DNA of 64,000 nucleotides, taken from a virus. Shown in pieces: positions 2,633-58,992 of this stretch. A program made the position numbers and the translations under genes. Position 1 is the stretch's first letter. Each line of letters starts with the position of its first letter. The notes beneath the pieces are model-generated. The model was not told where the DNA came from. It ran no database searches and worked only from the letters and a program-made list of their open reading frames with translations. The stretch lies in the IMG/VR virus record IMGVR_UViG_3300022856_000003. One strand, written 5' to 3'.

Positions 2633-2698
2633 TTGACATGCCTGCGATGTTCAACTAGAATGTGGTTGGAACGAAATCGATTGCGCCGAAGGTCGGCG
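2633..2698 (+). promoter_or_regulatory. sigma70-like promoter plus AAGGT-loop leader hairpin
   Basis: TTGACA-17-TAGAAT; CGCCG-AAGGT-CGGCG at 2684-2698; palindrome copy at 2672. Confidence 0.75.
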
Positions 2699-3181
2699 AG
2701 GAAGAATCCAGAATGATCAATCTCCACAACCTGTTCATCGCCCGTGACGGAATCGTAGCCGCTCTGGCCGAAGGTCTGTCTCCCGTGCAGGCTCTCAAGA
2801 AGGTCCGCGCGACGAAGGCTGGAAAGACCATCAGCGTGACGACCCTGATCCGCATGGCTCGGCGGCTCCAGGCATGAACCCTTCCCCCTCAATCGCTGAG
2901 TCTGCCGTCTCAATGGCGTGCCTGTTCAAGGCCGTTGGCGACCGAGAGCTTTCAATCACGAAGGCATCGGTCGCCACTGGTGGAACCAGCGCGATGGGAA
3001 AACCCTGGGCGAAACGCCATGTTGATCGGCTCGTCCGAGCAGGCATTCTGACCGTCCGTCAGAAGGGGAAGTGTCGCTGGGTTCGCCCCGCGAACCACGC
3101 CGAGTTCATGGAGTGGGCGAAGACGCAGGAGACGTATGAGTACACCGAGTCCATCGGCCAAAGCTGGGCGGAACACATCTC

Positions 3182-3775
3182 ATGAGCCGCCTCAAGACCA
3201 TCGTGGAGATCGAGAAGATCCTCCGCGACCATGTGACCAACGGGGAAGTGGACGCCGATGGCGATCCGAGGAACTATGGTCATCCGCTCCATGACAGTAA
3301 GGCCCGCTATGCGTGGCTCGTCGCTGCGGACGCCTTGAAGCCTCATCCGATCCCCGCTGCCATGCCGACCCGCGAGCGCATCAAGGAGCTGGAGGTCGTG
3401 TGGTGGCCTCTAACGATGGGGAAGACGAACAGGTCCGAGGATTGGACCGAGACCCTCCTAGCCGTTCTGACGGCAGAGGAGGCGGTCTGGGGCCTGCGTT
3501 TCGAGTCCTACCTCGATGTCTCAGGCTGGGACCGCTCCGATAGCGGTGACGTTGAGTACTCGCTCAACGCTGGGAATAGCGACAAGCACGATGAGGATCC
3601 TGTCGTCAGCCTCGTCATCAAGCGCGACATCTCATCCTGGGAGTGGTTCGTTCATTCCGACTCCTCATGGGGCGAGAAAATCGCTCAAGGCACCGGAAAC
3701 CTAGCCATCGAAGCCATCGTCGCGGGTCTCTGGGCCTTCCGAACCGCATGTGACGCACGAGGAGTGGAGCTGTGA
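3182..3775 (+). CDS. hypothetical protein
   Basis: Coupled ORF. Confidence 0.65.
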   Translation: MSRLKTIVEIEKILRDHVTNGEVDADGDPRNYGHPLHDSKARYAWLVAADALKPHPIPAAMPTRERIKELEVVWWPLTMGKTNRSEDWTETLLAVLTAEEAVWGLRFESYLDVSGWDRSDSGDVEYSLNAGNSDKHDEDPVVSLVIKRDISSWEWFVHSDSSWGEKIAQGTGNLAIEAIVAGLWAFRTACDARGVEL

Positions 3776-4416
3776 CACCGGACGAATACTACGCCCACGT
3801 CAGCCCGCCGCGTAAAGCCTTATCGAAGCTACTTAGTGGCCTCGCGCAGATCGTACTCGATGCGGGCTCTGGCAATTCCGTAGGCTGGCGAGGCGCAGTC
3901 CGCGCCATCAACTCGCTGCCGATGCTGGCGGAAGAGATCGAGATTGCCGAGAATCCGCCGTACAGCTACGAGACGAAGACGCCATGGGAGATGGGTCAGC
4001 TCGGTTGGCAGGTAGAGAACACCGTCAACTTGCTCGGGTGGGGTAAGTCCACTGGATGCTCGATTCGCATCCGCCGTTGGGACTGGCATGGCGACCATGG
4101 TGATGCCCACTTCCTGGTGAACTACACGACAGAAGACGGGTACCAGGACGCCTACGACCGATGCTGCCGTAAGGCGCTCCAGGCGTGGAAGGAGTATCGA
4201 AAGCCGGGATGCCCGCCCAATGGCATCGGCAAGGCATTGAAGCGAGACAAGCTCAAAGAGGGCATGCGCGACCGCCTCTTCGGCGACGACGACACGAAGG
4301 TCAACACCACCGTTGAGGTGCTGCTCGCGGAACTCGACAATGCGCTTGGCTTGCCGATGTTCGCCAACGAAGAAGACCCAGTCGAGAACGCTCTCGACAC
4401 GGTCCAGGAGGATTAG
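3772..4416 (+). CDS. hypothetical protein with acidic C-terminal tag
   Basis: Ends DPVENALDTVQED. Confidence 0.7.
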   Translation: MTPDEYYAHVSPPRKALSKLLSGLAQIVLDAGSGNSVGWRGAVRAINSLPMLAEEIEIAENPPYSYETKTPWEMGQLGWQVENTVNLLGWGKSTGCSIRIRRWDWHGDHGDAHFLVNYTTEDGYQDAYDRCCRKALQAWKEYRKPGCPPNGIGKALKRDKLKEGMRDRLFGDDDTKVNTTVEVLLAELDNALGLPMFANEEDPVENALDTVQED

Positions 4417-4620
4417 ATGTCGATGAAGCTAAATCAGGAGCAGACGAACTTTCTCCTCAGCCTCCTGCATGACGAGTGGCAGAACGCGGACGAAGAAGAT
4501 CTTGCCGACCTCGAGCTGATCGAGGCGACCGTGCGGGCTTCCATCGCAGAGGCTCATGGTCTCCCGTCCGACTCCGGTTCGCTTTGCATCCTCAACATCA
4601 CGCCGTCGAAGGAGACCTAG

Positions 4621-4941
4621 ATGGAACCGACCGCATCAGAAGTACTCGCTGACGTGATAGCGAAGGCTGTAGTCAAGAAGATGAGAGGGACCTCCTCGGT
4701 CCTCTCCTCCATCCTTGCCTTCCTGCTGGTCGGATTGCCTATCGCATCCATCATCTACGCCGCCGAGAAGTCGCAGAACAAGCCGTCCGACGAAGGTCCT
4801 TGGTCGCTCGTACAACCCGCTCAGCACATGAGCGACAATCAACAGATCCCCGCCATCTACACGGCAGAGATCGACGGTCGACGCTGTCTCGTACTCATGG
4901 GAGTACTGGCCGATAGCCTCGACTGCGAGGAGAGAGACTGA
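4621..4941 (+). CDS. hypothetical membrane protein
   Basis: Hydrophobic stretch VLSSILAFLLVGLPIASIIY. Confidence 0.6.
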   Translation: MEPTASEVLADVIAKAVVKKMRGTSSVLSSILAFLLVGLPIASIIYAAEKSQNKPSDEGPWSLVQPAQHMSDNQQIPAIYTAEIDGRRCLVLMGVLADSLDCEERD

Positions 4942-57039: not shown

Positions 57040-57048
57040 AGGTACACG

Positions 57049-57597
57049 ATGCTCGAATCCGCTATCAAGAACTACTGCTCTCACACCGCCGACACGGCGA
57101 TCTTCCCTGGTGCCGGAACCGCTGCTGGGTTCGACTACGTCGGGCTCGGACTCATCGGCGAGGCAGGTGAGGTGTGCGACCTCATCAAGAAGATGCTCCG
57201 CGACGACGACGGACAGATGACCGATGTGCGCCGCCTCAAGCTCGTCAAGGAGATTGGGGACGTGATGTGGTACTGGAGCGAGACACATGCATGCCTCGAG
57301 CTGGACCCCGTCCTGACGGTGGAGGCACAGCAGTCGATGATGGCCCCGACGAAGACCGTCCCGGCCATGGCCAAGGACCTCGGGTTCTTCGCCGCCCACA
57401 TCGCGGCCGTCAACGACGTGACGGACATGGAACAGCGTCAGGAGGCTCTCCAGATTCTCGCTTGCATGTTGAAGACAATGGTGGAGCTGTGTGAGGACGT
57501 GAACATCAACTTCGTCAACGTGCTCGAGACCAACTACAAGAAGCTCATCAGCCGCAAGGAGCGCGACGTGCTCGGCGGGGACGGCGACAACAGGTGA
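57049..57597 (+). CDS. MazG-like NTP pyrophosphohydrolase
   Basis: LGLIGEAGEVCDLIKK..RD..EIGDVMWY; N..KL..R..R.VLGGDGDNR. Confidence 0.85.
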   Translation: MLESAIKNYCSHTADTAIFPGAGTAAGFDYVGLGLIGEAGEVCDLIKKMLRDDDGQMTDVRRLKLVKEIGDVMWYWSETHACLELDPVLTVEAQQSMMAPTKTVPAMAKDLGFFAAHIAAVNDVTDMEQRQEALQILACMLKTMVELCEDVNINFVNVLETNYKKLISRKERDVLGGDGDNR

Positions 57598-58152
57598 AGA
57601 CGGCCAGGGCACAGATCGACGAGGCGCTGGATGTCTTCAAGTCGAAGGCACCCGTATGTCTCTGCGATGTCCGGCCATGTGTTCTCGACATGTGCGGGCC
57701 TCAGAAAAAGTCGTTCCTTGCTCGGGTCACGTTGATGGAGTGGGGAGTCTCATTCCCCGACGGGTACCAGACAGCCCTGTCTCACGCCTTCATGGGATAC
57801 GGAAGGACAGAGTTCGACGACCTGATGAGGGATTGGACCCTGACCTGAGTAAGCGGAAACCAGCTCGTGGTCGACCATCCGAACGGCGTGGTCGTTTAAG
57901 GCATCCTCGCTTCATGGCGGGGGTGCTTCACGATGTCTGGTTCCTTCCTCATGGGCGTATGAGGGAGCGAGTCAAGATCAGTGTCACGACCACGCCGGAA
58001 GCCTGGGAAAAGTCGCTGGGATGGAACACACTCGACCGCCATGTTCGGGAGGAGTTCGCTTGCCTGGACGACGCGAAGCGGGCTAAACTGGTGGTGACCA
58101 GTCGACCTGACGAGAAAGTCGTCGTTGAGCGGAAATGGTCAGGAGGTTCCTG

Positions 58153-58938
58153 ATGGAGTTCATCGACAAGCGAGGGCAACTCCCTCAGCACGCCACCCTT
58201 CGATATGGCGTTCGCAAGATCGAGGATCTCCTCGGTACCTGCGACCATCACACCGCTGGCAACCCGCACATGGGTGACGACGGAAAGTGGGACTCGCACG
58301 TCGAGGTTGCCAGGTACCACTCGGGACCGAACTCGCACCTCAAGGAGGGTGGTGCACCAGGCATCGCCTACACCTACGTCATCGAGCCCGACGGCACGAT
58401 CATCGAGTGCTGGGACCTGACCGTGAAGACGTGGTCCCAGGGATTCCGCGACCGGAAGGGGGATGAGAACGCGCAGTTCGTGTCCATCAACCACGTCGGG
58501 AACTTCGAGTCCAAGAGCAACCGCTCGGGGAAGCGCCCGACGCAGCAACAGATTCTCGCCAGCATCGCGCTGCACCTTCATCTGACCGGGAACACCCAGG
58601 ACCCTCGCATCCCAGAACGCCTGTTCGGAGCCGTCCCCTACGGTCCCGGCGATCGATTCGGTCACCTCGACTTCGGCAAGCCAGCGTGCCCCGGTGACGA
58701 TGTGGCCATTCTGGGTGAACTGGCCCAGCATCATGCTTCTCCGAATCTCGTGGGAGACAAGGCGTGGCAGGAAGCTCTTCTGTCCGCTGGGTACGCCATG
58801 GTGAAGTACGGTGCTGACGGCGATTGGGGTATGGAGAGTCGAGAGGCGCTAGTCCGGTTCCAGCGCGATCATGGGCTCGAGGCCACTGGTCAGCGAGACA
58901 AGGCCACCGAGAAAGCCCTGGTCGACGCGACCGTTTGA
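58153..58938 (+). CDS. N-acetylmuramoyl-L-alanine amidase with C-terminal peptidoglycan-binding domain (endolysin)
   Basis: HHTAG, GIAYTYVIEPDG, VGNF, GHLDFGKPACPG; WQEAL..AGY..GADGDWG..FQRDHGLEATG. Confidence 0.88.
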   Translation: MEFIDKRGQLPQHATLRYGVRKIEDLLGTCDHHTAGNPHMGDDGKWDSHVEVARYHSGPNSHLKEGGAPGIAYTYVIEPDGTIIECWDLTVKTWSQGFRDRKGDENAQFVSINHVGNFESKSNRSGKRPTQQQILASIALHLHLTGNTQDPRIPERLFGAVPYGPGDRFGHLDFGKPACPGDDVAILGELAQHHASPNLVGDKAWQEALLSAGYAMVKYGADGDWGMESREALVRFQRDHGLEATGQRDKATEKALVDATV

Positions 58939-58992
58939 CTTCCGACTGAACATCGGATACCATGTCTACACGGAACGCGCCGAGGTGACGCG
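58935..58992 (+). promoter_or_regulatory. sigma70-like promoter plus imperfect GAGGT-loop hairpin
   Basis: TTGACT-17-TACCAT; CGCGCC-GAGGT-GACGCG. Confidence 0.65.

Follow-up and report, generated by a model that had tools for sequence, protein, structure and literature searches.

A leader hairpin with an R-N-G-R-Y loop, conserved at early genes of an uncultured phage family: a candidate translational operator

To our knowledge, few phage-wide translational regulons are known; the textbook examples are those of T4 RegA and RegB, the sites of which are either unstructured or internal to the Shine-Dalgarno (SD) sequence. The boxB hairpin of phages lambda and P22, which has a GNRA-like loop, a boxA partner and two copies per genome, acts instead on transcription. 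Here we analyse a short hairpin with a conserved pentaloop that precedes early genes in a viral sequence from IMG/VR (record IMGVR_UViG_3300022856_000003). The window, that is the whole 64-kb stretch of DNA analysed, is a portion of a 144,017-bp uncultured phage contig found in several related metagenomes.

Among the described systems that can be compared with this hairpin, the sites of CsrA/RsmA/RsmE follow the pattern A(N)GGAX with the N looped out, and AAGGA pentaloops bind RsmE at high affinity (PMC4005645). In T4, RegB cuts GGAG/U inside the SD and is inhibited by structure, and RegA sites are devoid of structure (PMC3014915). The PeSL cassettes of the T4-type phages RB49 and phi1 contain stem-loops that are G/C-tract terminators of conserved sequence and variable position around the promoter (PMC2839356). 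KhpA and KhpB bind 5' untranslated regions (UTRs), the reported target being a CA-rich sequence in the ftsA 5' UTR and not a hairpin loop (PMC11261784). Judged from the sequences compared below, the motif is a real and conserved RNA hairpin regulon, anchored to the ribosome-binding site and displaying the loop R-N-G-R-Y at about twenty early genes.

Enrichment, loop code and placement of the hairpin

All 18 hairpins listed in a first-pass annotation of the window were recovered at their positions and with their stems. RAGGT loops close at least four Watson-Crick pairs at 19 of the 217 RAGGT words of the plus strand, as against 1 of 158 on the minus strand; in 60 fourth-order Markov simulations such hairpins average 1.2 and never exceed 6, compared with the 19 observed. 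An unbiased scan over every loop of 3-7 nucleotides (nt) puts AAGGT first among enriched pentaloops (binomial p 7.6e-12). Three further sites were added to the original list, at 38940 (GAGGT), 43224 (GAGAT, with a stem of 7 base pairs [bp]) and 47659 (ACGGT). The hairpin is predicted in 15 of 17 folded leaders, with a closing-pair probability of 0.57-1.0 and loop positions 2-4 unpaired.

Relatives of the phage were found by protein search, their AAA ATPases being 44-71% identical and lying on syntenic phage contigs, and the six with DNA (L106, L107, L108, L127, L248 and L249) formed the comparison set. Under a lenient rule, 32 of 34 orthologous leaders in these six phages retain the hairpin, one or two of the cases being doubtful, while 6 of 24 control starts score under the same rule. 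Stems are rewritten among orthologues, with several pair types at most stem positions; in the leader of the AAA gene, for instance, the second stem pair is C-G, G-C, U-A or A-U. Family-wide, 11.9 kb of leader contains 62 hairpins, whereas the rest of the coding strand has 52 in 166 kb and the opposite strand 48 in 178 kb. Leaders are enriched about 17-fold; the relatives provide the cleaner test of density, since start codons of the window were partly picked in knowledge of the sites. An annotation-free signature combining hairpin, SD and start occurs 21 times per 100 kb in the family and 0.9-1.3 times per 100 kb in other viruses, random bacteria and Myxococcota; a megabase of distant viral loci with AAA genes has none. 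The hairpin is absent from 55 distant viral loci with AAA ATPases (best segment 29-51% identical), and its signature stays at background in phage Mx8 and in 754 kb of genome samples from Myxococcota, a host that is itself unproven. Such restriction to one family fits a family-specific reader.

The loop, first taken to be an invariant (A/G)AGGU, proves more variable, and its family consensus is R-N-G-R-Y: mostly AAGGU, but also GAGGU, ACGGU, AAGAU and GCGGU. Position 1 is A in 45 sites and G in 23; at position 2, A (49) and C (12) prevail, with G too; position 3 is G; at position 4, G (47) outnumbers A (21), and at position 5, U (60) outnumbers C (8). An unbiased list of every leader pentaloop begins with AAGGT, GAGGT, ACGGT, AAGAT and GAGAT. 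The loop of 5 nt is closed by C-G in 49 of 68 sites and by G-C in 15, on a stem of 4-7 bp with free sequence, and the lineages differ in preference, with AAGGU in the window and L106, AAGAU in L108 and ACGGU in L249. Loops such as AAGGC and AAGAC show that neither a Watson-Crick nor a wobble pair is required between positions 1 and 5, so that an AGG triloop closed by R-U, the alternative description, is not required. The earlier argument from G-U pairs to an RNA structure is also weak, since the C-A mismatch at 58976 reads as a wobble on the other strand; internal G-U pairs are few, yet there are two C-A mismatches, and the pairs do not settle the strand.

The position of the hairpin is tied to translation initiation. 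Of 62 curated sites, 47 have the loop 13-24 nt ahead of the start codon (mean 18.5, standard deviation 2.4) and nine others, which form a short class, have it 5-10 nt ahead, a few of the start coordinates behind these values being off by one or two bases. The end of the stem falls -3 to +5 nt from the SD at most sites, and the distance from the -10 box to the loop ranges over 11-48 nt (standard deviation 10). Moreover, operon-internal genes without an adjacent promoter also have the hairpin, as at 42036 (in six of six relatives) and L248:17149. The spacing to the start codon and these internal copies together place the hairpin in the translation-initiation region, and its description as a promoter-proximal element has to be revised accordingly: placement follows the ribosome-binding site, not the promoter. 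The related statement that almost every sigma70-like promoter is followed by a hairpin holds for 14 of 17 credible predicted promoters, the exceptions being 6810, 41738 and 61008. Tandem copies occur at 39339/39352, 43224/43247 and L127:12543/12555. Orthologous leaders alternate between a loop that serves as SD and a hairpin placed before a separate SD (37670 versus L106, L107 and L127), and GAGGT is favoured only where the loop serves as SD (5 of 9 sites versus 6 of 53; Fisher p 0.006). The sites of the window are collected in table 1.

Table 1. Leader hairpins of the window and the KH-domain gene; promoters and start codons are sequence predictions.
Feature	Position	Strand	Remarks
Hairpin AAGGT, 5 bp	2684..2698	+	SD next, start 2713; promoter 2633-2661
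Hairpin AAGGT, 5 bp	9818..9832	+	Strong separate SD, start 9845; promoter 9769-9797
Hairpin AAGGT, 6 bp	12645..12661	+	Start 12675; promoter 12598-12626
Hairpin AAGGT, 6 bp	15499..15515	+	Start 15529; promoter 15447-15475
Hairpin AAGGT, 6 bp	17149..17165	+	Start 17179; promoter 17088-17115
Hairpin GAGGT, 4 bp	22108..22120	+	Near predicted transcript 5' end; separate SD, start 22138
Hairpin GAGGT	24068..24082	+	Loop is also SD; start 24084
Hairpin AAGGT, 5 bp	32167..32181	+	Start 32193
Hairpin AAGGT, 5 bp	36189..36203	+	Start 36214; kept in L106
Hairpin GAGGT	37670..37684	+	Loop is also SD, start 37687; orthologues in L106, L107, L127 have hairpin and separate SD
Hairpin GAGGT	38940..38954	+	Operon-internal start GTG 38954; overlapped by a palindrome copy, membership less certain
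Tandem AAGGT hairpins	39339-39351, 39352-39364	+	Ycf46-type AAA ATPase gene, start 39367; kept in 5/5 relatives
Hairpin AAGGT at SD position	41144..41156	+	NrdG-like radical SAM gene, GTG 41161
Hairpin AAGGT, internal G-U	42036..42052	+	Operon-internal DUF1257 gene without adjacent promoter; kept in 6/6 relatives
Tandem hairpins GAGAT, 7 bp, and AAGGT, 6 bp	43224-43242, 43247-43263	+	Start 43273; kept in 5/5 relatives
Hairpin ACGGT, 6 bp	47659..47675	+	Upstream of thyX (47694)
Hairpin GAGGT, 4 bp	49781..49793	+	Gene after KH gene, TTG 49800; kept in 5/6 relatives
Hairpin GAGGT, terminal G-U pairs	53820..53836	+	Loop may be SD of GTG 53836
Imperfect hairpin GAGGT, C-A mismatch	58976..58992	+	SD, start 59005
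KhpA-like KH-domain gene	49427..49726	+	Found in every relative; a possible reader, though GXXG is lost in L248, L249

A translational operator and its possible readers

The reading that we favour, though tentatively, is that the hairpin acts as a translational operator whose loop is recognised by a single specific protein, most likely one that represses early genes. Sequence conservation confined to the loop, conservation of pairing alone in the stem and a site on the SD or beside it point to such a protein-read operator, following the precedents of CsrA and of phage operators. The operator would be common to the leading gene of every early/middle transcription unit and to a few genes inside such units; its stem of free sequence (4-7 bp, closed by C-G or G-C) would display the R-N-G-R-Y loop to one sequence-specific RNA-binding protein, probably encoded by the phage. 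With the stem abutting the SD, or the loop itself being the SD, the bound protein would block the 30S subunit, and the tagged genes would be switched off together, most plausibly at the early-to-late transition. We favour repression because both leader geometries would let the bound protein block the 30S subunit, and because early genes behind many strong host-type promoters call for an off-switch in a lytic phage. CsrA is a dimeric binder, and the tandem copies suit a binder of this kind. The first-pass annotation had already proposed a site for an RNA-binding protein, which agrees with a selected leader hairpin having a sequence-specific loop; the partner, the direction of its effect and the timing are what we infer beyond this.

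Several observations weigh against a repressing operator. The tight spacing to the start codon suits recruitment of the ribosome as well as its occlusion, and at some sites of the short class the hairpin may do no more than enclose an SD. Searches with E. coli CsrA and with a profile from Myxococcota yielded no CsrA homologue (best E above 1) in the window with 19 kb of flanks (83 kb of the genome) or in the loci of the relatives. Finally, in the KhpA-like protein the GXXG motif is replaced by GAQH in L248 and by GVQR in L249.

This KhpA-like protein, suggested at first for RNA pull-downs, is encoded in every relative; but L248 and L249 carry 9-10 leader hairpins each despite the loss of GXXG, which makes it a weak candidate for the reader. 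The leader of its own gene has no conserved hairpin in the relatives compared, and a KH-profile scan of viral contigs found no locus. The gene (window 49427-49726; L248:16864-17175; L249:16614-16919) always follows genes for an acidic protein of about 80 residues and a basic helical protein of about 125 residues, and its product could be a decoy partner of host KhpA/B. Two conserved neighbours that were folded (177 residues at 42660 and 126 residues at 49047) gave confident models with no significant fold match, the former having weak Tudor/KOW-like rows only (E at least 0.04, Z at most 5.2). As to the host, CsrA is present in 65 of 151 sampled Myxococcota genomes, but the sampled leaders are without hairpin enrichment and a host reader is not supported by these sequences. 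Of separate interest, a conserved divergent CsrA clade (L264-L275, from Myxococcota) keeps an Arg equivalent to Arg44 and has the HREE motif and Arg6 replaced.

The same narrow spacing between loop and start (standard deviation 2.4 nt) is also what would be expected of a positive element, whose loop would bring in the 30S subunit itself, or a factor from phage or host, at a set distance ahead of the SD, giving early phage mRNAs priority in translation or exempting them from a host shut-off that the phage induces. The placement at the first gene behind strong host-type promoters is in keeping with this possibility, as is a signature not above background in sampled Myxococcota leaders, which a self tag would require. 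However, at least nine sites have the loop at the SD position and the stem near the start codon, where a bound factor would clash with the ribosome, and orthologous leaders swap between the two geometries (37670 versus L106, L107 and L127); we thus consider a positive role unlikely. A specific form of self tag, in which a phage factor of unknown fold would read R-N-G-R-Y and give phage mRNAs ribosome priority or timed exclusion, the family being one case of a widespread, so far undescribed class of leader-hairpin regulons with a loop code for each family, appears to us rather doubtful too.

Timed decay after the manner of RegB, whereby a phage endoribonuclease would cleave the exposed loop and inactivate early mRNAs, has a precedent in the cutting of GGAG/U within early translation-initiation regions of T4 (PMC3014915). 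Loop positions 2-4 are indeed unpaired, and the element keeps to the early/middle arm, RAGGT hairpins being absent from the 9.7 kb downstream of the window. Yet cleavage upstream of an intact and separate SD would not be enough to stop translation, coding DNA shows no depletion of the loop words (observed/expected about 1), and no RegB-like nuclease was recognised with Pfam and PHROGs among the 124 open reading frames of the window, most of which have no assignment. On these grounds timed decay is quite improbable.

There might also be no reader acting in trans, the hairpin insulating or stabilising the leader and showing a second SD-like sequence, such as a standby site or a STAB-SD-like element. 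GAGGU followed by G does complement the anti-SD, and GAGGT is enriched where the loop is the SD; where the SD is separate, on the other hand, AAGGU dominates, and the common loops ACGGU, GCGAU, AAGAU and AAGAC pair poorly with the anti-SD, with ACGGU, GCGAU and AAGAU arguing against a second SD. The common stable loops, GNRA and UUCG, are not used either. A passive hairpin therefore has a low probability.

The last three alternatives fare worse. Antitermination, an idea of the first-pass annotation with little in its favour, would make the hairpin a boxB/nut-like or LoaP-like signal that modifies RNA polymerase, in line with the presence of one copy near the start of most sigma70 units and with the purine-rich pentaloop. 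But the spacing is to the start codon and not to the promoter, internal genes have copies, no boxA-like word was seen beside the hairpin and no NusG paralogue was found; moreover, terminator-like sites of the intrinsic type on the plus strand are few and not above shuffles, leaving little for an antiterminator to do, and this role is very improbable. Loop-loop pairing with one phage small RNA could accommodate positions 1, 4 and 5, which vary by transitions only and could be tolerated through G-U wobble, and one hairpin of 7 bp, at 22053-22071 just upstream of promoter 22072, has a loop (ACCTT) that is the reverse complement of the main one (a single case, possibly due to chance). Position 2, however, changes between A and C within single genomes (L248, L249 and the window), which argues against pairing with one RNA since a single complement could not accept both, and the orthologous long spacer has no conserved complementary loop, so that pairing of this sort has a very slight probability. 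A hairpin acting in DNA (an N4-type promoter hairpin, an ops-type non-template hairpin or a recombination cassette) might be read into stems that are nearly all Watson-Crick and two C-A mismatches that are G-T on the other strand, but its constant orientation to the gene, its location downstream of the -10 box with spacing to the start codon and its variable stems, which give no homology for recombination, leave it scarcely credible.

Genome context and other recurrent features

The window contains about 120 small genes on a single strand, forming the early/replication arm of the phage, with ligase, ThyX, DnaB, primase, a Ycf46-type AAA ATPase, a radical SAM protein, GroES and the KhpA-like protein in its gene set. 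Megablast of the window against annotated phages returned no match, the best tblastn matches are 23-32% identical, and there is no close cultured phage; Rfam 15 at gathering score gave no match in the window. Some 330 nt upstream of the window there is another RAGGT hairpin, and the 9.7 kb downstream hold a single leader hairpin with an ACGGT loop. A flanking AhpC/MopE-repeat protein resembles Myxococcota proteins (Atlas score 0.89) and provides a lead only towards a Myxococcota host.

The module at 39367-42555 comprises genes for the AAA ATPase, the radical SAM protein, a DUF2997-like protein and DUF1257, three of the four having the hairpin, in an order that is the same in all relatives. L248 has 33 clustered tRNA genes at 1400-6900, and the other relatives have none in the corresponding loci. 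About 5.2-5.8 kb upstream of the window, an intergenic region (L065:3470-4050) with many GNRA- and UUCG-capped hairpins looks like a large structured non-coding RNA; this spacer matched nothing in Rfam at E 0.1. A non-coding spacer of 250-300 nt occupies the same position in four phages (window 37309-37600, L106:5822-6050, L107:5203-5430 and L127:8328-8560) and opens with a strong hairpin whose sequence is unrelated.

Three short motifs recur besides the leader hairpin. The palindrome GAAATCGATTTC, with family consensus CGMAATCGATTKCG, is found about every 4 kb within genes and spacers alike, in 14 perfect copies between 1252 and 62158 of the window (e.g. 9744, 36119 and 53814), and is kept in most relatives (occurrences in L065, L061, L107, L108, L248 and L249); it is likely to be a DNA-binding site, and was rejected as a host marker given its similarly low rates in Myxococcota and Planctomycetota. 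The word GATGTTCA, which we take to resemble a LexA-type half-site, lies inside or just after many predicted promoters (2646, 9801, 15458, 32143, 36167 and 49755) and in reversed orientation at 41080 and 58947. Finally, a TTGCACCATT-type motif opens long intergenic spacers (window 15292, 37290 and 37443; L065 2337 and 8437; L061 14835), is also present in the orthologous spacer of L106, L107 and L127, and is possibly a phage promoter or operator.

Comparison with known systems

Like boxB, the hairpin described here has a specific, purine-rich pentaloop and stands in early phage leaders; unlike boxB, it has about 20 copies anchored to ribosome-binding sites and a loop that usually starts with A and ends with U, and it does not qualify as a boxB element. 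With the PeSL cassettes it shares the succession of sigma70 promoter, stem-loop and SD before small early ORFans, here at 14 of 17 predicted promoters, but its stem is short and free, its loop is conserved and it is followed by a purine-rich SD with no U-tract, the accessible part of the PeSL description containing no conserved loop (PMC2839356). RegB and RegA resemble the proposed system in the phage-wide, post-transcriptional shut-off of early genes through signals in the translation-initiation region, shut-off being for our phages a proposal; they differ from it in that the present sites are structured R-N-G-R-Y pentaloops, usually upstream of an intact SD, and do not conform to the GGAG/U of RegB. 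As for KhpA/B, the family has a KhpA-like gene, but an intact GXXG does not accompany the hairpins in two of the relatives.

Literature searches returned no description of a RAGGU or R-N-G-R-Y loop motif in phages, and the regulon is apparently new to the literature, as a variant of phage translational operators. It would imply a post-transcriptional layer in the early programme of these phages, and with 13-17 nt the element is small enough for direct reporter and pull-down work; if the reader were found, reader and hairpin could serve as an orthogonal translation switch.

The hairpin most resembles a CsrA/RsmE site. Both have a short free stem closed by C-G, a 5-nt purine-rich loop with a free second base and tandem copies, and both are located at or beside the SD of many mRNAs. 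The initial view that the loop matches neither CsrA sites nor boxB holds in that GGA is missing, but understates the likeness to the former, since AAGGU is one base from the high-affinity AAGGA pentaloop, just as ACGGU is from ACGGA. Nevertheless, the defining GGA is present in only 1 of 62 curated loops (AGGAT, in L107), the ANGGA-loop signature has a count of 0 in the family, no CsrB-like sponge was found, and the loops here allow G at position 1 and A at position 4 and end in a pyrimidine at position 5. Because 61 of 62 loops lack GGA, the element is not, on its loop sequence, a member of the CsrA/Rsm group. A structured operator of CsrA-like design with another loop code, present in about 20 copies per genome and kept where AAA ATPases are 44% identical, would imply an RNA-binding protein so far unrecognised.

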